Shown piece after piece: positions 9,197-26,656 of a stretch of 64,000 nucleotides of DNA. The notes under the pieces are model-generated. The model ran no database searches and was not told where the DNA came from. It was given only the letters and a program-made list of their open reading frames with translations. Numbering within the stretch: position 1 is the first letter of the stretch; every line of letters starts with the position of its first letter. Source of the stretch: Bacteroidota bacterium. GTDB lineage: Bacteria; Bacteroidota; Bacteroidia; UKL13-3. The position numbers and the translations under genes were made by a program. Location of the stretch: assembly GCA_040388375.1 (NCBI GenBank), contig JAZKBU010000007.1, positions 3,263 through 67,262 of the forward strand, given 5' to 3'.

Positions 9197-9355
9197 CTAT
9201 TTAAAAGAGTTTCTTATCTTTTTTTGTTTTCTGAAACCATTATAAAAGCCAAGGTAATAGCCTACCAAAAATGGAATCATTAATAATCCTACTACTAAAA
9301 TACATATAACTGTTATATCAGAAACACTCAAACTGTCTATCACTGCGTGTGGCAT
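9197..9355 (-). CDS. Possible small membrane protein (about 52 aa, single TM). Not in the ORF track because it is shorter than 60 aa
   Basis: ATG at 9355. Translation MPHAVIDSLSVSDITVICILVVGLLMIPFLVGYYLGFYNGFRKQKK... has one hydrophobic helix and a basic tail. Confidence 0.2.
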   Translation of the reverse strand: MPHAVIDSLSVSDITVICILVVGLLMIPFLVGYYLGFYNGFRKQKKIRNSFK

Positions 9356-9657
9356 ACTTTCTTAAATTCTATTCGTTTATTTAGCCTCCAAACATACAAT
9401 ACATATAGCATGCATTATGTAGTGAAAACACGGTATTTATAGTAGAATATATATTTTCATCTACTTAAAAATAGCCCTGTTTTAAATGTACTTTTATTGC
9501 TGTTTTTTAGGCTAAACTATTATTTGTAAGAAGTTAACACTATCTCGTTATTCATACTTTGTAATGCCGTATGGTAAATAAAAGGAATAAGATTATGTTT
9601 GTTTGCCGACCAAAAGCAGTAATAAATGGCAGCCATACAACAACAAACCATTACAAA

Positions 9658-14374: not shown

Positions 14375-14610
14375 TAAATTTAAACACCTAATACAAAAAG
14401 GATGCGAGCGCAGGCCAGACAAAAAAGCGGGCCGCGCATCAAGCCTGTGGGGAGAAGCATTTTTTTGTCTAGCGTTTTTGGATACTTTTTTGGCAATGCA
14501 AAAAGTATCGAAGCAAAAAAAGAGAAGAACATTTATTGCAGGCGGGGACGCCTGCAATGGCTATATAAGATATCTGTGCTAACACACACCTATAGCGTGT
14601 GCTATTCTTT
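14375..14610 (+). ncRNA. Candidate structured RNA: a GC-rich intergenic block bounded by two terminator-like hairpins, containing copy 1 of the 88-nt two-hairpin element
   Basis: Local GC is far above the window average (gcgagcgcaggccagac...gcgggccgcgc...gcggggacgcctgc). Several self-complementary stretches. The small ORFs in the track here overlap on both strands. A -7-like TAAATTTA sequence lies just after the first hairpin. Confidence 0.25.
14475..14561 (+). repeat. 88-nt conserved element, copy 1. Hairpin 1 is gatacttttt/aaaaagtatc; hairpin 2 is ttgcaggcg-GGGA-cgcctgcaa
   Basis: About 85% identical by eye to 24156-24242 in the same orientation. In copy 2 the stem changes that are present keep pairing possible. 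Confidence 0.6.
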
Positions 14611-17903: not shown

Positions 17904-17970
17904 ATTTGTTTTGTTTTTAAATTGTTTTGTAATGCGGGCAAATGTATATACGTTTGCTATATAAAAGTAA

Positions 17971-18010
17971 GTACTATACAATAGTATAGCACTATACAAA
18001 AGTATAGTAC
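17971..18010. promoter_or_regulatory. Nested palindromes in the DoxX/HxlR divergent promoter region (candidate HxlR operator)
   Basis: The outer arms gtactatac and gtatagtac are reverse complements. Inner palindromes are tatacaatagtata and ctatacaaaagtatag. Confidence 0.4.
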
Positions 18011-18051
18011 TTGCATACCACAAAAGCTAAACGTAAAATTGACAAGAAATT

Positions 18052-18410: not shown

Positions 18411-20897
18411 TTACCTTTTTACGCCACCTTTGGCTACGGCACTGGCAGTCCAGGGGTCATCGGGCCAGGCATGTTTGGGGTACCTGCGTTTCAATTCTTT
18501 TTTTACTTCAAAATAAGTATTGTTCCAAAAGCTGCGTAAGTCAGCCGTTACCTGCACGGGTTTAAAACCGGGCGATAACAAATGCAACACCAATGGAATG
18601 GTATTGTTGTTTATTTTAGGCGTATCGGCCATACCAAATACCTCCTGCAAACGCACGGATAGGATAGGAGTTTCGCCATTGGCTAAATAAGCAATAGCTA
18701 TGTTGGAGCCACTGGGCACGGGTATTTTAGCCGGAGCCAGTTTGTCTAACGCTTGTTGTTGCTCCCAGCTTAAATGGTTCTTCAATGCTTCGGTTATATT
18801 TATTTTCTTTAAATCTTCCGGCTTTTTTACCTGGGTTAAATAGGGGGCAAGCCATTCTTTATTGGTCAGTAATAAATGAAAGGTGCTTACATCGGGCCAG
18901 TTATCGGCACTATTCCATTTACGTAAACTTAAAATACGGTTTTGTAATTGGGCAAAGCTTTCATCAAAATTCAACAAGGCTTCACCTTCGGTTTTTATGG
19001 CATTGCAAATAGCATCAACCAAATGCTCTGCACTTGGTGCAGGCAATGGTTTTGATTGCAATACAATACTGCCAATGCGTAAATCTTTGGTGGCAATTAA
19101 ACCACCTTTGCGGGTATCCCAGGTTATTACTTCGCGTTCTTTCACCATCGGCAATAAGTCTTTTGGGTTTAAGGGTGAAGCCATAAATATTTTTCCCAAG
19201 CCATCGCGCGTATCAATATGGGCTACGGCTAACCAGGGCTCGTTGGCTAAGTTATCCCTATGTCCGGCAGTAGCTATTTTACCATTGGCTAATTGAAACT
19301 GTGCATTGTTTCCAGGTCTGGCAAAAGCAATGCGTTCCGGATAAGTATAAGCCAATAATAAACCTGTTTCGTAATCATCAACGGGTGTGTTTTCGGCTTC
19401 TACCTGTAACATTTTACGGTACGAGTCGGCTACCTTGTCTATGCGCCCAAACTTATTGCCCAAGCTGTTGGTCTGTCTGGCCCTGCGCAATGCTTCAATA
19501 CGTAAGTTTATATCTATACCACTGTCTTTTGGTAAAGGATCACGTTCCTCTAAAATAGCAGCAATGTCGGTAGCTAAAGCAATGGCATTATCTGTTTTGG
19601 CTTTTAAAAGCATGTGCGCTATACGTGGGTGGCAAGGCAACTGGTGAATGGCTTTACCATGCTCAGTAATACGTTTATTTGCGTCTATGGCATTCAGATT
19701 GGTTAATACATCAAAAGCTTGTGCAACGGCTGCTTTGGGTGGTGGTGTTAACCAGGTTAATTGTTCAATATTGGCAATACCCCATTTGCTCATATCCAAT
19801 ACCAGGGCGGCTAAATCGGCTTCCATTATTTCGGGTGTGCGGTGTTCAGCCAAACGCTGGTGTGTGGCGTTGGTCCACATACGGTAACAAACGCCTGCAC
19901 TTAAACGCCCTGCACGCCCTGCGCGTTGGTCGGCTGAGTCTTTGGTAATGCTTACTGTTTCCAAACGCGATAAACCTGACTTAGGGTCGAAACGCGATGT
20001 GCGGGCAAAGCCTGTATCTATTACTATTTTAATACCTTCAATGGTTAAACTGGTTTCGGCTATGGAGGTAGCCAATACTACTTTACGTTTACCTGTTTTG
20101 TTAGGCATAATAGCTGCGTATTGTTCGCGTTGTGGTAATTGTCCGTATAAGGGATGAATAGCAAAATCAGTGAGTTTGTTTTTTAACAACTCGGCACATT
20201 TTCTTATCTCGCCTTCGCCCGGTAAAAATACCAATACATCGCCCGGGTTTTCTTTAACCGCTTTTATTACTGCCTGCGATGTTGTTTCGGGCAGCAAAAA
20301 TGGGTCTTGCTCGCCTGTATAATGTATAGCCACCGGGTATTGTTTGCCCTCGCTTACGGCTACAGGGCAGTTTAACAAAGCTGTTAGCTGTGGCATATTT
20401 AAGGTTGCCGACATAATCATAATACGCAAATCGGGCCTTAATATTTGTTGTGCTTCGCGGCATAAAGCCAAAGCTACATCTGCAAATAAACTGCGTTCAT
20501 GAAACTCATCAAATATAACCAGCCCCACATTTTCCAAAGCATTATCAGTATGCAACATGCGGGTTAAAATACCTTCGGTTACTACTTCTATTTTGGTGTT
20601 TGGGCCTATTCTGTTTTCAAACCGAATGCGGTAACCTATGGTTTGCCCTACTTCTTCTTCCAATAGTTCAGACATACGCATGGCAATACTGCGCGCAGCT
20701 AAACGCCTTGGCTCCAGCATTATTATTTTTTTACCGCTGAGCCATGTTTCTTCCAGTAAGGTTAAAGGTAATAAGGTACTTTTTCCTGCTCCCGGAGGGG
20801 CATTTACGATGAGGGTATTGTTATTGGTTAAATGTGTTTTTACCTCAGTAATAATATCGGCAACGGGTAAATTATATTGGTATGGATTAAATGACAA
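18411..20897 (-). CDS. hrpB: ATP-dependent helicase HrpB (DEAH-box)
   Basis: Walker A GAGKST, DEFHERSL, and the HA2 and HrpB C-terminal regions. 828 aa matches the HrpB length. Confidence 0.9.
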   Translation of the reverse strand: MSFNPYQYNLPVADIITEVKTHLTNNNTLIVNAPPGAGKSTLLPLTLLEETWLSGKKIIMLEPRRLAARSIAMRMSELLEEEVGQTIGYRIRFENRIGPNTKIEVVTEGILTRMLHTDNALENVGLVIFDEFHERSLFADVALALCREAQQILRPDLRIMIMSATLNMPQLTALLNCPVAVSEGKQYPVAIHYTGEQDPFLLPETTSQAVIKAVKENPGDVLVFLPGEGEIRKCAELLKNKLTDFAIHPLYGQLPQREQYAAIMPNKTGKRKVVLATSIAETSLTIEGIKIVIDTGFARTSRFDPKSGLSRLETVSITKDSADQRAGRAGRLSAGVCYRMWTNATHQRLAEHRTPEIMEADLAALVLDMSKWGIANIEQLTWLTPPPKAAVAQAFDVLTNLNAIDANKRITEHGKAIHQLPCHPRIAHMLLKAKTDNAIALATDIAAILEERDPLPKDSGIDINLRIEALRRARQTNSLGNKFGRIDKVADSYRKMLQVEAENTPVDDYETGLLLAYTYPERIAFARPGNNAQFQLANGKIATAGHRDNLANEPWLAVAHIDTRDGLGKIFMASPLNPKDLLPMVKEREVITWDTRKGGLIATKDLRIGSIVLQSKPLPAPSAEHLVDAICNAIKTEGEALLNFDESFAQLQNRILSLRKWNSADNWPDVSTFHLLLTNKEWLAPYLTQVKKPEDLKKINITEALKNHLSWEQQQALDKLAPAKIPVPSGSNIAIAYLANGETPILSVRLQEVFGMADTPKINNNTIPLVLHLLSPGFKPVQVTADLRSFWNNTYFEVKKELKRRYPKHAWPDDPWTASAVAKGGVKR

Positions 20898-21033: not shown

Positions 21034-21783
21034 TTATTTGCTCAACCAGTTTTTAAAATCGGCAGAGCGGTCAATACTTACTATTAACTCCTCGGTACTG
21101 GCAGGGGTGGTTTCTATTTTTATACGCCCTTTGGTATAAGCAGTCATTTGTTTAATAGCCTGAATTTTTATAATAAACTGTCGGTTTATACGGAAAAAAT
21201 ATTCAGGGTCTAACATCGTTTCCAGTTTATCTAAAGTATAATCAATCAGGTGGGTAGATTCATCGTTGAGTATTACTTTAACATAACGTCCCTCTGATTG
21301 AAAGTAAGCAATATCATCTATACCAATAGAGCGTATTTTACTGCCTGATGTAACCATAAAACGTTTCTGAAAAGTGTCCTGATTTTTCATTTCATGTAGT
21401 AGCTTATCCAATACTTCTTTCGATACAACTTTTGTATCGTGGTACTTATCCAGTGCATTTTTAAGCTCACTTTTATCAAAGGGTTTCAACAAATAATCAA
21501 TGCTGTTTAGCTTAAAAGCTTTCAGGGCATAGTGGTCGTAAGCGGTAGTAAAAATAATAGGTGCTTTTACCACTACGCTGTCAAAAATACTAAAGCTTAT
21601 ATTGTCTGATAAATAAATGTCAAGGAAAACAATATCGGGTGCCAGGTTATTTTTAAACCAGCTAATGGCTTTGCTTGCTGATGGAATAACCGCCAATACT
21701 TCTATGCTGCTATCTATTTCCTGCAATAGCTTTTGTAAATAGTCAGCCGCTATTTGTTCGTCTTCAATAATCAATACTTTCAT
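21034..21783 (-). CDS. LytTR family two-component response regulator
   Basis: Receiver domain (MKVLIIEDE...DIVFLDI) plus C-terminal LytTR DNA-binding domain. Overlaps the upstream kinase gene by 4 nt. Confidence 0.9.
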   Translation of the reverse strand: MKVLIIEDEQIAADYLQKLLQEIDSSIEVLAVIPSASKAISWFKNNLAPDIVFLDIYLSDNISFSIFDSVVVKAPIIFTTAYDHYALKAFKLNSIDYLLKPFDKSELKNALDKYHDTKVVSKEVLDKLLHEMKNQDTFQKRFMVTSGSKIRSIGIDDIAYFQSEGRYVKVILNDESTHLIDYTLDKLETMLDPEYFFRINRQFIIKIQAIKQMTAYTKGRIKIETTPASTEELIVSIDRSADFKNWLSK

Positions 21784-23609
21784 ATAGTGTGGGCTTGTAT
21801 CAATGGAATAATGACTATGTATTTATTATCGCGGGTTTCAAAACGGGGCGTTTCGTTGTGCAAAATAGCAAATCGGGCCATAATATTTTTTATACCAACG
21901 CCCATGCTGTTTGTTTTGTGCGTACGTATTTGCAGGTTGTTTTCTATAATCAGGTAATGCTGTTGGGTGTATATATTTATTTGTAGAGGATGCTCTTCTT
22001 CTATGGTATTGTGTTTAAGCGCATTTTCTATCAACATTTGTAAACAAAAGGGCGGAATAAATAGCGCCATACTTTCTGCCGCTATGTTTTTATGCAATAA
22101 CAAATTATTGCCAAAACGTATTTTTTGCAAATACATATAATCATCTACCAAGTTTAGCTCCTCTTGTAAGGGTATCAGCGAGTCGCCTTTTTGTGAGAGT
22201 ATGTTGCGGTAAAATTTAGAGAATACGGTTACAAATTCGGCAGCCTTTTTTACATCGGTTTGTATAAGCGAGCTTAAAGCATTTAAGCTGTTGAATAAAA
22301 AGTGTGGACTAATCTGGCTGCGTAGTATTTCGTATTGTGCCATTATGTTTTCGGTTTGTAAGCCTACATTTTCGGTGGTTAGGGTTTGGTTGGTTTTCTT
22401 TTTTAACCGGGTATTTCTATACAGTAAAAACACCAGTAAAAACATAGCCCCAAGCAATATTATAAATATGGTTTTTTGCAATAAGGCTTTGCTCAGTTCG
22501 CTTTCCTTTAACTCGTTGGCGGTTTGTAGCAAAGCCAGCTCTTTGTTTTTACGTTCTACGTTAAACTTGGTTTCTGTTTCGGCCAGTTGGGCTACATGCG
22601 ACTGGTTAATTAACGAATCGTTTAAGGCTATAAACCTGTTTTGCCACGCGTAAGCTTCGGCCGGCTTATGGGTTTGAAAACACAGCTCCCCCATATTGCG
22701 GTAGTAGTTGGAAACTACCGAGCGTGCGCCTATTTGTAAGGCCAATTGGTAGCCGCTGTCCAGGTAGTGTTTGGCTTCCTTATAATTACCTGTGCCTATT
22801 AAAACACTGGCCAGTGTGGTGGCGGTGCTGGCACAGCTTAGTTTGTTATTGGATTTTTTCTGGTATGCAATGGCCTGTTTTAAATAGTCAATGGCTTTGT
22901 CGTTTATGCGTAACTCCGCATAGGCTATACCTATACTGCAGTATAATACAGATTGATTAACAAAAGTGCTGTCCTTGTGGGCAGAAGGAAGCGCTTTTAA
23001 ATACAAGGCAATGGCTTCTTTGTATTTTCCTTCCGAGGTATAAATATTGCCTATATTATTGGCTATGGATACATATTTTTTATAATCGCTGGCTTCTAGT
23101 TTCGATAGTGCTTGTAGGTAAAAACCCAATGCTTTCTTTTTGTTGTTTAAATAAAAATAGTCGTTGCCAATATTAACCAGGGCAGATATATATCCTTTTT
23201 CATATTGAAGCGAATCGTACAGGCGCAAAGCATGTAAATGCAAATCAACGGCCTCGTTGTATAAACCTTCTGTGCGCAGCATATTGGCGTTTAAATCCAT
23301 GGCCATAGCCAAACCCGGAGCGTAATGTATTTGGGTGCTTAGTGTAGTTATTTCGTGTGTTAAAACTTTACCCGCTTCTCTGTCAGATAAAACAACGCCA
23401 AAGGCCAAATCGCGCAGCGCTTTTACCTTGTTGCTGTCGTTAGGCATGTGCTTAATAGCCTTTTGCAGGCTATCTATATTGTGGTTTTGCGCATGTATGG
23501 GGTTGCTAAAACAGACCCAAACAATGGTTAGTATCCATAAGGCTTTAAACATATGGCAACTTAAATATTTCAGCGCTAAAAAAGTATTATGCTGTGCTGA
23601 AAGTGTCAT
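21780..23609 (-). CDS. Sensor histidine kinase, LytS/YehU type (His_kinase domain), with periplasmic TPR repeats
   Basis: Signal or TM segment, TPR-like repeats, one TM (IFIILLGAMFLLVFLLY), then 'SPHFLFNSLNALSSLI' His_kinase motif and an ATPase domain. The internal Met about 20 codons in (MFKALWILTIVWVCF) may be the true start. Confidence 0.8.
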   Translation of the reverse strand: MTLSAQHNTFLALKYLSCHMFKALWILTIVWVCFSNPIHAQNHNIDSLQKAIKHMPNDSNKVKALRDLAFGVVLSDREAGKVLTHEITTLSTQIHYAPGLAMAMDLNANMLRTEGLYNEAVDLHLHALRLYDSLQYEKGYISALVNIGNDYFYLNNKKKALGFYLQALSKLEASDYKKYVSIANNIGNIYTSEGKYKEAIALYLKALPSAHKDSTFVNQSVLYCSIGIAYAELRINDKAIDYLKQAIAYQKKSNNKLSCASTATTLASVLIGTGNYKEAKHYLDSGYQLALQIGARSVVSNYYRNMGELCFQTHKPAEAYAWQNRFIALNDSLINQSHVAQLAETETKFNVERKNKELALLQTANELKESELSKALLQKTIFIILLGAMFLLVFLLYRNTRLKKKTNQTLTTENVGLQTENIMAQYEILRSQISPHFLFNSLNALSSLIQTDVKKAAEFVTVFSKFYRNILSQKGDSLIPLQEELNLVDDYMYLQKIRFGNNLLLHKNIAAESMALFIPPFCLQMLIENALKHNTIEEEHPLQINIYTQQHYLIIENNLQIRTHKTNSMGVGIKNIMARFAILHNETPRFETRDNKYIVIIPLIQAHTI

Positions 23610-23747
23610 TTATTGACATGAAGGAGCAGTATACTATTTTAAAAATGACACATTTAAACGGTATGAAAAAGGGCTTAGTAGTTTACGAGTTAATAAGAGA
23701 TGGGTTGATTGGCTGCCTACTTAAAACCCGGACAGTATGAAAAAAAT

Positions 23748-24052
23748 GTTTTTGGTACATTCCTGAAACTGGGACTATATAAAAAATATATTTTTATTAC
23801 GTTCCTCAAATTCGGAATGTATATAAAATAAATTTTTACTACGTTCCTGAAACTAGGACTGTATATAAAATATATTTTTATTATGTTCCTGAAACTCGGA
23901 ATATATATAAAATAAATTTTTACTACGTTCCTGAAATGAGGAATGCATATAAAATAAATTTTTATTATGTTCCTGAAATGAGGACTGTATATAAAATAAA
24001 TTTTTACTATGTTCCTAAAACTAGGACTATGTGTAAAATAAATTTTTAGTAC
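23748..24052 (+). repeat. Tandem array of seven 42-bp direct repeats (plus a degenerate eighth), consensus TTTTTAYTAYGTTCCTGAAAYNRGGAMTRTATATAAAATAAA
   Basis: The GTTCCT core recurs at 23759, 23801, 23843, 23885, 23927, 23969 and 24011, exactly 42 bp apart. Units alternate between two subtypes (ATTAY...CGGAAT and ACTAC...AGGACT). No unique spacers. Confidence 0.9.
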
Positions 24053-24155
24053 TTATTTATAACTAACATATCATATAAAAAGCAGAAATACCTTCAGCGT
24101 GCGTACAGAAGTATTTTGCCCTTATTGTGTCTTCAGACCAATAAGTAGCCTGGCA

Positions 24156-24242
24156 TTTTTGGATACTATTTTGCTCATGCAAAAAGTATTGAAGCAAGAA
24201 AAGGGAAGAATATTAATTGCATGCGGGGACGCCTGCAATGGC
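24156..24242 (+). repeat. 88-nt conserved two-hairpin element, copy 2
   Basis: Aligns with 14475-14561: ...tttttggatact..tttg...atgcaaaaagtatYgaagcaaRaaaRgRgaagaaYattWattgcaKgcggggacgcctgcaatggc. Confidence 0.6.
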
Positions 24243-24352
24243 GTAATTACAATCCGTAAAGTGCTTCGTTAACTATATGAACTGTAAGATATAAAAATGT
24301 AATCCTACCTATATACCAATATTTATATTTTTTCGTTTTACATATTAGTTTT

Positions 24353-24376
24353 AAAAAAAAGAGTGTTTTTCCTACT
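24353..24376 (+). repeat. Fourth copy of the AAAAGAGTGTTTTTCC box
   Basis: aaaaaaaagagtgtttttcctac, followed by a partial second copy aaaaaagggtattt. Confidence 0.45.
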
Positions 24377-24672
24377 AAAAAAGGGTATTTATACTATTGG
24401 ATAGTAATAAATACATATTTACTATTGCAGTCAATATATATATAAGTAATATAACAAATATAGATAAAAAGCCCATAGGTGCGCTAACACCTACAGGCCA
24501 TGTAAATAAATAAAACGTTGTCCTATGCTGATAAAACTACATCCTATTTAGCTACGAAAGTAGCCAAATAACAAAACATAGCAATACTGATTTGCTGATA
24601 CACTAAAAATGCCATAACCCCAAGGCTAGCTTTAAATAGTGAGGTAAATAACAAACTATTAAACAAACAATA

Positions 24673-25167
24673 ATGAAACGAATAATAATTATAATGACTA
24701 CTCTTGTACTTGTTGCCTGTAGTCGTGAAAAACAACAGGAAAGTGCTTTACCCTTTAAAAAAGCTATTCCTAATCTTACCTCGACAAATACAAAAAAAGA
24801 CCCTAAACCTACTTCTGGTAAAAATGCAAAAATGATAAAAACCAATAAATGTGATGCAACAGTGACTACAAACTGTACACTGATGAATAAAGGCACACGG
24901 GAAGCTCCCAGAAAGTATGATGAGTTGGTGGATATGCTTAAACTGGCGCCTGCAAATGGTAATCATTATGTGAGCGATTTATTTAACTCAAGTGATTTTG
25001 AAGAAATTTCGGAACAACTTGACTCCATAGATTTGGTTAAATTGCAAAGTGATACTTACTATTTAAATATTAATTATGAAGCTGACGATGTAGTAGTTTT
25101 TATGGCAGGACCTACTAACCCAGTTAGTACGGAGAATATGGACTTTGGATTTCAATTACCTAAATAA
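24673..25167 (+). CDS. Hypothetical lipoprotein (164 aa)
   Basis: Signal peptide with lipobox LVLVAC-S. Lys/Thr-rich linker, then a globular C-terminus. Confidence 0.55.
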   Translation: MKRIIIIMTTLVLVACSREKQQESALPFKKAIPNLTSTNTKKDPKPTSGKNAKMIKTNKCDATVTTNCTLMNKGTREAPRKYDELVDMLKLAPANGNHYVSDLFNSSDFEEISEQLDSIDLVKLQSDTYYLNINYEADDVVVFMAGPTNPVSTENMDFGFQLPK

Positions 25168-25176
25168 TACACTTAC

Positions 25177-26277
25177 ATGTTATCAATTAAAAATATAGCT
25201 TTTGTATTCCTGGCAATTTGTTTTTTTACAAGTTGCCGGGAAAAGGTAAATGGAAATACTTACAATGCTGACGAGTTCATTACGGACTCTTTTACCATAA
25301 ACATTAACGATTTTAACAGCGTTTGCCAGTTTATCAATTTTACCAATGCCCAAACTATTAACTCATTTGACCCGGTAAAAAATGAAATTGAAACCTATCA
25401 ATTAAAGGGTAATACCTTTGTGCTTGATAGTACTCAAAACATACGGGTGAATCAGCGGGTGGATTTTTACTTTTTTACGCCTTTGCAAGGCAAATACTAT
25501 TTAACGGATGCGGAGAACAATTGGACCATTGTAGACGCTGCTACTAAACAATCGCAGTTTTATAAACGAACCGCTACTATTCCGTTTATTGAACAAGAGT
25601 ATCGCTTGGGTTATAACAGACAAACTCCCCTTATTAAACAGGGTAATGTATTATACTGCCAATATACAAGCCCTGCCGGGACAGCCCAAATAGATGAACA
25701 TATTATGGCTTCGTTTACGCCTCAAAATGGTGTTATTGATAACATCAGTAATTATTTGGATAAGCCTAAGGCTTTATATAATTATGTAGAAAGACTGCAT
25801 ATGTATTGCGTAAAGGATAGTATTGTATCACTTCTGTTTCCTTGTTTTGATACGCTGTATAGGTTAAACATAACCACAGGTATGGTTACCAAGAAGGTAC
25901 TCCAAAACAAAAACTTTTGTTTACCTGTACAAACGCAATTAAATGTTGATGATCCCAATTATTTTAGTGCTTTGAGTAAATATACTTATGCTAATTTCAG
26001 GTACTACGGTATTCAATACAACCCTGCTACCGGGCATTACGTAGCCTATTATAAATTACCTGTAAAACATGTAAAGGATAGAAATATAGTTGATACAGAC
26101 CAACCGCTACAAGCCATTGTAATGGATAGTGATTATAATATTCTTAACTATGTATTGTTTAAACCTGTTTATGATGACCCTTTTTGTTTTGCAGTGCATC
26201 CCACAAAAGGTATAGCCATTCCTTTACTTAAAGAGCCTAAAACCAATGCTAAGAATTTTTATTATTTTAATTTTTAG
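25177..26277 (+). CDS. Hypothetical lipoprotein (366 aa)
   Basis: Lipobox FFTSC-R. Rich in Tyr, Asn and Thr. Size and composition are compatible with a beta-propeller-type Bacteroidota lipoprotein, but the family is not assigned. Confidence 0.6.
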   Translation: MLSIKNIAFVFLAICFFTSCREKVNGNTYNADEFITDSFTININDFNSVCQFINFTNAQTINSFDPVKNEIETYQLKGNTFVLDSTQNIRVNQRVDFYFFTPLQGKYYLTDAENNWTIVDAATKQSQFYKRTATIPFIEQEYRLGYNRQTPLIKQGNVLYCQYTSPAGTAQIDEHIMASFTPQNGVIDNISNYLDKPKALYNYVERLHMYCVKDSIVSLLFPCFDTLYRLNITTGMVTKKVLQNKNFCLPVQTQLNVDDPNYFSALSKYTYANFRYYGIQYNPATGHYVAYYKLPVKHVKDRNIVDTDQPLQAIVMDSDYNILNYVLFKPVYDDPFCFAVHPTKGIAIPLLKEPKTNAKNFYYFNF

Positions 26278-26656
26278 TTGCTTGCTTGGGTGTAAACAAG
26301 TCAACTACACTACCAATAAGGAGTTTTTTAGCTATGCGGCTATGTGGGGTATAAAACCGGAAACGGATACGCAATTGTATGCGCTTTTTCCGGCTAACCA
26401 ATGTACCAAATGTTTTACGATACACAATACCAACCCAGCTTTAACCCATCAAGTTACCATTATACATGCTTTGAATAAGGAAATGTTTAGTGGTTTTCAA
26501 TCTATGTATTACGACAGTACAAATACGCTGCAAACCCTGCAACTGGTTAATTATGCCAATACTTTTGTAGTGGTTAAAAACAAAAACATAGTAGCCATTA
26601 GCCCTATTACCGACTTTTTCCCCCAAGCGGATAGTTTACTGGCAGTATACCCGTAA
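26246..26656 (+). CDS. Hypothetical small lipoprotein (136 aa)
   Basis: Lipobox CLLGC-K. Overlaps the preceding gene by 32 nt. Confidence 0.5.
   Translation: MLRIFIILIFSCLLGCKQVNYTTNKEFFSYAAMWGIKPETDTQLYALFPANQCTKCFTIHNTNPALTHQVTIIHALNKEMFSGFQSMYYDSTNTLQTLQLVNYANTFVVVKNKNIVAISPITDFFPQADSLLAVYP

Follow-up and report, generated by a model that had tools for sequence, protein, structure and literature searches.

What does a tandem array of 42-bp units do in the intergenic region upstream of a two-component operon, and does it belong to that operon at all? The question is raised by a 64,000-nucleotide (64-kb) stretch of a Bacteroidota bacterium (GenBank assembly GCA_040388375.1, contig JAZKBU010000007.1), referred to here as the window, in which an array at 23749–24052 lies between a sensor kinase/LytTR regulator pair on one side and three genes, the first lipoprotein-like, on the other. 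The array is independent of both the LytTR pair and the lipoprotein-like genes. Arrays of its kind, with a period of 42 bp and with dyads in each unit, are the constant upstream companion of two all-helical cytoplasmic protein families (~230–320 aa) in Bacteroidota and some neighbouring phyla. In the window the array is an orphan copy, with the kinase in the position of the helical-protein gene. We tentatively favour a reading in which it is a functional cis element acting at the DNA level, one of a dispersed family of such arrays.

The array is the sole one of such size across the window, and is composed of 7.2 copies of a 42-bp unit with the consensus TTTTTAYTAYGTTCCTGAAAYNRGGAMTRTATATAAAATAWA (Tandem Repeats Finder (TRF): 83% matches at period 42, score 373); the motif strand (TTCCTGAAA...GGA) is the plus strand. 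The core TAYGTTCCTGAAA is found at 23756, 23798, 23840, 23882, 23924, 23966 and 24008, in exact 42-bp steps and with at most one mismatch, confirming the seven units in exact register described in a first-pass annotation of this DNA. The spacing of the GTTCCT core given there also holds, but the first core reads ATTCCT. With up to two mismatches allowed, TAYGTTCCTGAAA matches 15 times, a count not reached in any of 100 shuffles. The units are contiguous and 74–90% identical over their full length, 26 of the 42 columns being invariant across all seven, and the G+C content of the array is 23%, against 35% for the window. Immediately before unit 1 on the plus strand is a degenerate ‘unit 0’ (GATTGGCTGCCTACTTAAAACCCGGACAGTATGAAAAAAATG, 23707–23748), recognized by reading the alignment.

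Each unit comprises two dyads, the centres of which are 21 bp apart. Dyad A (TTCC-N8-GGA[A/C]) occupies 23759–23774 in unit 1 and recurs every 42 bp through 24011–24026. Dyad B, spanning the unit junction, is the AT-rich palindrome AAAATAWATTTT (23782–23793, again every 42 bp; score 7/10 at unit position 39.5–40.5). The inverted repeat TTCC-N8-GGAA, first described for every unit, is present in three of the seven; the other four have GGAC, so that dyad A often retains just 3–4 bp per arm. Odd and even subtypes derived from an 84-bp dimer had also been proposed, and this pattern is weak in the window: alternation is strict at unit position 7 only, mean identity is 35.3/42 between neighbouring units and 36.2/42 between next-but-one units, and TRF matches rise from 83% at period 42 to 86% at period 84. 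A clear 84-bp dimer is found in the related arrays L039, L168 and L174 (for L039, 72% at 42 and 88% at 84).

No open reading frame (ORF) with a start codon spans the array, and the 1064-bp gap in which it lies (23610–24672) contains only unconvincing ORFs of 40–63 aa, in agreement with its initial description as ORF-free; a coding repeat or multi-core peptide was rejected on the absence of a start-codon ORF. That a minus-strand frame stays open over the array follows from its period being a multiple of 3, and arrays with periods of 41, 43 or 44 exist too. Promoters of the sigma-70 or Bacteroidota type in every unit were likewise rejected, with near-matches only (TAAATTTT) and a scan count not above that of shuffles. 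The array is not CRISPR, as had been recognized from the start: the units are contiguous without unique spacers, and there are no cas-like domains among the neighbours. Neither terminal inverted repeats nor target duplications were seen at the array borders, and no composition break was found around the region. The general interpretation first given to the array stands, namely that of a non-coding array with a period of four helical turns that is most plausibly a protein-binding or architectural element at the DNA level.

Arrays of this kind are dispersed. Two TTCCTNAAANNNGGA cores lying 37–47 bp apart were sought in 185,579 species genomes, which gave 41 loci, ~20 of them exact 42-bp tandem arrays. 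The scan selects for the core, and does not select for the excess of period 42 or for the palindromic extensions past the imposed bases. Most loci are from Bacteroidota (Chitinophagales, Marinilabiliales), Ignavibacteria and a few further metagenome-assembled genomes (MAGs). Some genomes hold several arrays, often at contig ends, and the remaining ~26 bp of the unit vary from array to array. In a metagenome scan (periods 20–50, TTCCY allowed), period classes of 20–22 and 40–45 bp are present among the matches listed, so the motif class is broader than 42 bp alone. The motif is absent from viral contigs (IMG/VR). The window array shares the anatomy of the class, with a period of 41–43 bp (or an 82–84-bp dimer), at least three units and one or two A/T-rich-centred dyads per unit. 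Sequence cores as different as TTCCTGAAA..GGAA, CTCCTTCAAAAATGAAGGAG, ATCCTAAAAAGTTAGGAT and AACTTCAAAATGAAGTT all recur at 41–43 bp; the period has been kept while the sequence has diverged.

Recurring next to the L014, L015 and L039 arrays, as found by clustering of the flanking ORFs, is a protein family with no match in Pfam, NCBIfam, PHROG or PADLOC, here called the Pfam-less family. A hidden Markov model (HMM) of this family added array-flanking ORFs at L022, L058 and L151, and detects 1360 representatives of 50%-identity clusters (E ≤ 0.001) in two size forms, of ~230 aa and ~315 aa, that are predicted to be all-helical. Five loci (L168, L169, L170, L174 and L176) were retrieved through the protein alone, as an unbiased test of the association. 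All five have an upstream array, with a period of 41–42 bp and 3.3–6.5 copies, and three of them (L168, L170 and L174) additionally show a super-period of 83–126 bp. A dyad-bearing array with a period of 41–43 bp is thus present at 11 of the 11 loci examined for this family, stopping 45–400 bp before the ATG. The T-rich dyad centre is on the gene-sense strand in eight of ten polar cases, and has the same orientation relative to the kinase in the window.

The same upstream arrangement is seen for DUF6261 genes at L030, L089 and L165, the last of these having been retrieved for an unrelated reason. Comparison of the Pfam-less family with DUF6261 by hhalign was negative (probability 0.5%); both are all-helical by high-confidence prediction, with short and very long helices in parallel order. 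The array association is retained down to ~20% protein identity in the helical families. Array sequences at the gene-linked loci differ widely (CTCCTTCAAAAATGAAGGAG, ATCCTAAAAAGTTAGGAT, AACTTCAAAATGAAGTT and others), and the period and dyad character stay. We found no paper on 42-bp arrays in Bacteroidota and no published function for DUF6261; the widely distributed association of phased arrays with particular gene families is apparently previously undescribed.

In front of five of the genes in the Pfam-less family, at L170, L058, L174, L176 and L015, a perfect Bacteroidota −7 box (TAnnTTTG), read by eye, lies between the array and the start codon, which places the array upstream of the promoter and outside that mRNA. 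Arrays of sites for sigma-54 activators, or of palindromes of the ARG-box type, are comparable in that several phased dyads lie 60–400 bp upstream of a promoter and serve oligomer assembly. They differ in that the arrays described here have no −24/−12 promoter, have up to ten units, which is above any described activator array, and vary in sequence between paralogous loci. No −24/−12 promoter (GG-N10-GC, at least 8 of 12 positions) was detected in the 300 nt upstream of 11 helical-protein and four kinase genes, and a sigma-54 activator array was rejected for lack of these elements downstream of the array.

Of the arrays found by the scans, that of L039 alone resembles the window array closely, with 75% identity over ~310 bp; the similarity ends at the array borders, and there is no homology in the flanks. 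A window-type array also lies 75 bp upstream of the P0134 gene at L169, a locus whose sequencing run also yielded L042, and L042 matches the window at 100% identity. On the strength of that shared run, the population of the window very probably has this array type at two or more loci. The window array is 75–80% identical to the L039 and L169 arrays, with invariant columns in common; specific columns of the unit are invariant over 25 units (four arrays, three genomes).

Several further features of the class were observed. At L040 (358–929), L106 and L162, two or more different arrays of ~42-bp period lie side by side, a TTCC..GGAA-core array abutting a core-less one at L040, which suggests that arrays diversify in place. 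At L004, L023, L034 and L015, arrays adjoin genes for large proteins sorted by the type IX secretion system (T9SS; Por_Secre_tail). An association with T9SS cargo was set aside, because three of the four come from a single Chitinophagales MAG, as paralogous loci that also have ~190 bp downstream of the array in common. Five metagenomic loci (L047, L066, L069, L150 and L084) have pairs of TTCCC-N6-GGGAA palindromes with a 20–21-bp period at or just past the 3′ end of ~460-aa ORFs, which match the window regulator in its receiver part only. These ORFs may be NtrC-type activators, and the palindromes could then be activator sites of a different system sharing the core motif. Upstream of the L165 DUF6261 gene, which lies next to a three-gene cassette also present in the window, is an array of 82-bp period (899–1177, 3.4 copies) with CCCAAAAGGG dyads; it has no counterpart in the window, where DUF898 directly follows the cassette. 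A phage or defence link of the arrays was rejected: in addition to the missing motif, no relatives of the two proteins used as queries, P0134 and P0122, were found in IMG/VR, and there was no PHROG or PADLOC match.

How the window copy relates to its neighbours was examined by comparing the orthologous kinase/LytTR locus across four relatives: the window, L163, L165 and L167. In the window the array has 7.2 copies and the three genes to its right are present. In L163 (GCA_040384145.1, 1.35-Mb contig; kinase 99% identical) the array has 8.4 copies and the three genes are absent. In L165 (MAG CAYTWI01; kinase 91%) the array is absent and the three genes are present, and in L167 (kinase 89%) both are absent, one similarly degenerate solo unit lying at the place of ‘unit 0’. 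The kinase/LytTR operon is kept in all four and the array in two, and it is from this that the independence of the array from the LytTR pair follows; its independence from the lipoprotein-like genes follows from the array without genes in L163 and the genes without array in L165. The first-pass annotation had proposed searching relatives for a constant neighbour and for differences in copy number. Neither the LytTR pair nor the lipoprotein genes track the array, and copy number does vary, from 7.2 to 8.4 at 99% kinase identity.

Missing from the orthologous intergenic region of L165 is a block of ~565 bp comprising the array and its right flank (23717–24281). On the kinase side, the flanks of the window and L163 are 98.6% identical; their arrays are 88% identical and differ by an indel of one whole unit. 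The short-read contigs L042 and L164 end within the array, and L028 and L153 represent one locus with 2.9 and 2.2 copies. The intergenic region of the window is a hotspot of repeat turnover. The MAG that lacks the array at its kinase locus has one elsewhere, L039 and L165 being from the same bin. This MAG (GCA_964442045.1; L039, L165 and L168, CAYTWI01 contigs) is labelled ‘uncultured Bifidobacterium sp.’ and encodes the 91%-identical Bacteroidota-type kinase as well as T9SS sorting domains; it is a mislabelled or chimeric bin.

The array ends 140–197 bp upstream of the kinase (for a start at 23609 and 23552, respectively), and its polarity towards the kinase is that of the arrays upstream of helical-protein genes. 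Searching all frames of the window with the HMM (E-value up to 10) recovered no homologue of the Pfam-less family, and Pfam scans identified no DUF6261 among the eight flanking genes, the DUF6261 HMM itself not having been run on window ORFs. The unit type that precedes a Pfam-less-family gene at L169 and L039 sits here upstream of a kinase operon, where polarity is unchanged and the distance comparable, and the window copy is accordingly an accessory, co-opted or ‘orphan’ copy of that type. It had been suggested at the outset that dispersal of the unit without positional conservation would speak against a role for the array. The unit is indeed dispersed and not positionally conserved at the window locus, but its position is conserved with respect to a different gene family.

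In the reading that we favour, each window-type unit offers two dyads, TTCC-N8-GGA(A/C) and AAAATAWATTTT, at a distance of 21 bp, and the four-turn repeat places all sites on one face of the duplex. Dimers of a putative factor may bind these dyads and assemble cooperatively on the phased lattice, and the array would thereby modulate a promoter 50–400 bp away. Copy number would shift by slippage or unequal exchange, and, owing to a period that is an integral number of helical turns, flanking sites would stay in phase. A variant of this mechanism is the array as an architectural spacer, in which a change in length by whole units would leave the rotational setting of the flanking sites unaltered. 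Such a lattice for cooperative binding is the most economical mechanism. The anatomy, the dispersal, the link to genes, the placement upstream of promoters and the fast turnover are observed; binding by a protein, cooperativity and an effect on regulation are inferred. Taken as a whole, the class behaves like a selected cis element acting on DNA, having a constant position and polarity, a four-turn period and a drifting sequence that is homogenized within each array. The background is sparse, with one such array in the whole window.

Several observations weigh against this reading. The window copy is dispensable in close relatives. Orphan arrays, lacking a helical-protein gene, follow no rule of orientation and are found between divergent, tandem and convergent genes alike, so that neutral spread fits them as well as function does. 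The paralogues L039 and L168 of one MAG encode proteins that are 75% identical, and their AT-rich spacers are recognizably related, yet their dyads differ, which makes a single conserved sequence-specific binder unlikely. The helical protein beside the arrays has no recognizable DNA-binding fold and is mostly acidic to neutral (median isoelectric point ~6.2). Hairpins of window-type units are no better than those of shuffles (z of −1.1 to +0.3), dyad A being weak with arms of 3–5 bp. Finally, the period could have been retained by descent and concerted evolution instead of by selection.

The main rival is that the array is a neutral or selfish minisatellite, that is, a functionless offshoot that recombination or template switching carried into a repeat-tolerant intergenic region and that slippage alone maintains. 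We consider this possible, though on the whole unlikely. It accounts well for the presence and absence of the array among relatives with kinases 89–99% identical, for an array that evolves ~8 times faster than its flank and adjoins a dispersed repeat (‘element X’, described below), for orphan arrays in every intergenic context including convergent ones, and for the many loci at which arrays break short-read assemblies, a sign that copies are multiple. It leaves unexplained why, in two gene families, each member examined has an array upstream, with period and dyad character kept and sequence not, a retention which argues that the class as a whole is under selection. The canonical polarity and distance of the window copy to the kinase gene, and the specific columns invariant over 25 units from three genomes, also count against it.

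In behaviour, the nearest of the described repeats are bacterial minisatellites such as the mycobacterial interspersed repetitive units (MIRUs), which are intergenic minisatellites or variable-number tandem repeats (VNTRs) of 46–101 bp. Shared with these are non-coding tandem units of ~40–100 bp, several loci per genome, copy-number differences between strains and homogenization within a locus, and thus the same dynamics; the arrays described here differ in carrying dyads, in holding to 42 ± 1 bp despite divergence and in sitting 5′ of particular families, whereas MIRUs are inside operons. The window array is a VNTR, a term that describes its behaviour and not its function. Repetitive extragenic palindromic (REP) sequences, bacterial interspersed mosaic elements (BIMEs) and palindromes resembling miniature inverted-repeat transposable elements (MITEs) are also dispersed, intergenic and palindrome-containing, and break assemblies. 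The arrays, however, are head-to-tail with a fixed period and not alternating, and neither terminal inverted repeats nor target duplications nor a RAYT-like gene was observed.

More ambitious than the favoured reading is the proposal that the arrays and the helical-protein genes of the Pfam-less family and DUF6261 constitute a previously unrecognized, widely conserved gene-plus-array module of Bacteroidota and neighbouring phyla. A protein assembly, formed by the helical protein or by a co-evolving partner, would load onto the 42-bp-phased lattice, with orphans as further loading or regulatory sites. We hold this proposal to be doubtful.

That the array serves the adjacent operon was the natural first assumption, and the first-pass annotation linked it to the LytTR regulator. 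Stated fully, the phosphorylated regulator (21034–21783) would bind both the window array and the array upstream of the helical-protein gene, making one regulon with autoregulation. Bacteroidota have many LytTR regulators, the targets of which are not known, and many PF06580 kinases were among the homologues found. Where one type of cis element precedes both a transcription-factor operon and a further gene of the lineage (the window; L169 and L039), the usual logic of regulon inference would suggest such a link, and we take TACGTTCCT to resemble published LytTR half-sites such as TACGTTAAT. The idea is nevertheless improbable. The orthologous L165 and L167 operons, two of the four compared, have no array, though the genome of L165 keeps one at L039, and no LytTR or PF06580 gene is present within the retrieved flanks of any other array locus (~135).

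The anatomy of the unit also disagrees with direct-repeat binding by LytTR. Operator pairs of LytTR regulators (AgrA, ComE, PlnC and BtsR) are 9–10-bp direct repeats with a 12–13-bp spacer. Like these, the window array has repeated sites upstream of a LytTR two-component operon and a TACGTT-like submotif; unlike them, it has a period of 42 and not 21–22 bp, contains no internal direct half-site, conserves a dyad, is not kept at orthologous operons and belongs to a class found mostly away from LytTR genes. In a cyclic comparison of the consensus unit with itself, no 21-bp direct sub-repeat is found, and similarity at shift 21 is 6/42, the minimum of all shifts; there is thus no pair of half-sites at 21–22 bp. 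Across the class the conserved feature is the dyad and not a pair of direct half-sites, other arrays do not keep the ACGTT part, and no direct repeats occur beside the kinase start, in the conserved promoter-proximal region of the operon.

Very improbable, in our view, is an element acting at the RNA level, with the array transcribed either as a leader to the kinase operon, from a promoter further to the right, or as an RNA of its own. Its small hairpins would then form a row that serves, for example, as a sponge for protein or as a substrate for processing. A −7 box (TATATTTG, 24462–24455, −) does point through the array towards the kinase, strong hairpins of 7–8 bp occur in some arrays of the class (L168, L038, L151 and L004), and dyad arms covary between lineages. 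None of the Rfam 15 covariance models has a match above noise within the array, however, and the hairpins of the window are not above shuffles; the fold of the whole array is dominated on both strands by inter-unit AT pairing, and single-strand folds are uninformative. Gene-linked loci have a recognizable promoter between array and gene, orientation to co-directional genes is random in tandem contexts (two versus two), and a fixed 42-nt period is left without a reason.

The suggestion of iterons, or of a sopC-like centromere of an integrated plasmid or mobile element, is largely refuted and has a negligible probability: it draws on tandem direct dyad-bearing units in helical phase, an AT-rich block in each unit and an architecture like that of F sopC, and is opposed by the absence of any rep, par, integrase or transfer gene nearby and of a composition break, by flanking genes that are chromosomal and syntenic on the 1.35-Mb contig, by the absence of the motif and the linked proteins from viral contigs and by the several arrays possible per genome. 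In architecture alone, F-plasmid sopC, with 12 × 43 bp each containing a 16-bp inverted repeat bound by SopB, is the nearest known system. Unit length is near-identical, and there is one inverted repeat per unit, on one helical face, in an array beside the genes served. The window-class arrays differ in being chromosomal, in several copies and without a ParA/ParB partner, the linked product being an acidic-to-neutral helical bundle without a DNA-binding fold.

To the left of the array, on the minus strand, is an operon encoding a sensor kinase with TPR and His_kinase (PF06580) domains (21780–23609) and a response regulator with receiver and LytTR DNA-binding domains (21034–21783). The longest kinase ORF begins at 23609 (609 aa), the start given initially; database homologues are all 587–590 aa, and the start is probably the ATG at 23552, giving the 590-aa form of public annotations. 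About 620 bp to the right of the array on the plus strand are the three genes (24673–26656; 164, 366 and 136 aa), which have no family match. They constitute an accessory cassette inserted between the kinase operon and the DUF898 and M48 genes. Genes neighbouring the array comprise the kinase, the regulator, an HrpB helicase, DUF898 and an M48 peptidase. Immediately right of the array, 24053–24087 (+) is identical to L163 at 30 of 35 positions, after which the two strains have unrelated sequence for 63 bp.

Located at 24150–24245 is a copy of a separate dispersed, hairpin-rich repeat that we refer to here as ‘element X’, including a G+C-rich hairpin TTGCATGCGGGGACGCCTGCAA at 24215–24238. Element X is ~90–170 bp long, has three hairpins, the G+C-rich one being of the form ATTGCAGGCG-N4-CGCCTGCAAT, and looks MITE- or REP-like from its sequence. 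Other copies are at 14400–14561 in the window (also delimited as 14469–14561), at 9258–9359, 19747–19834 and 21468–21527 in L163, at 9989–10062 in L164 and at 660–759 in L165. It adjoins the arrays in the window and L163, and in L165 it sits between the array and the DUF6261 gene; its G+C-rich hairpin sequence was also read by eye beside the L168 array, where blastn gave no match. Just upstream of the 164-aa gene are two terminator-like minus-strand hairpins (24470–24499 and 24544–24571) that are conserved in L165, overlapping a weak match to the Rfam trpB motif (24459–24570, −; 31 bits against a gathering score of 59, E = 0.055). The −7 box TATATTTG, a perfect one, follows these hairpins, and together they could represent a small minus-strand RNA or a leader. 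Elsewhere in the window, a palindromic unit of 18 bp, CTATACAAAAGTATAGTA, is repeated 3.1 times (17957–18011; 16294–16348 in L163). It is kept in L163 and L164, where it separates a DoxX gene from the divergent gene of an HxlR-family regulator; judging from this placement, it is probably the HxlR operator.

For the window, these comparisons do away with an assignment to the LytTR regulator that was tempting but lacked support. The window instance is an orphan copy, and the part worth following is the association of arrays and genes at the level of the class. A strictly associated cis element with a four-turn period is the first handle on DUF6261 and the Pfam-less family; the association points to a shared mode of control or of DNA association, and the array units are ready bait sequences. 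The arrays also explain the assembly breaks just upstream of helical-protein genes. If they are neutral, they would still be useful VNTR markers for strain typing of uncultured Bacteroidota. If they are true phased lattices for protein loading, they would add a new type to the regulatory architectures of bacteria, and, should arrays and helical proteins indeed form one module, it would be a new locus-specific chromatin-like or switch system and not a variant of operators, iterons or VNTRs.

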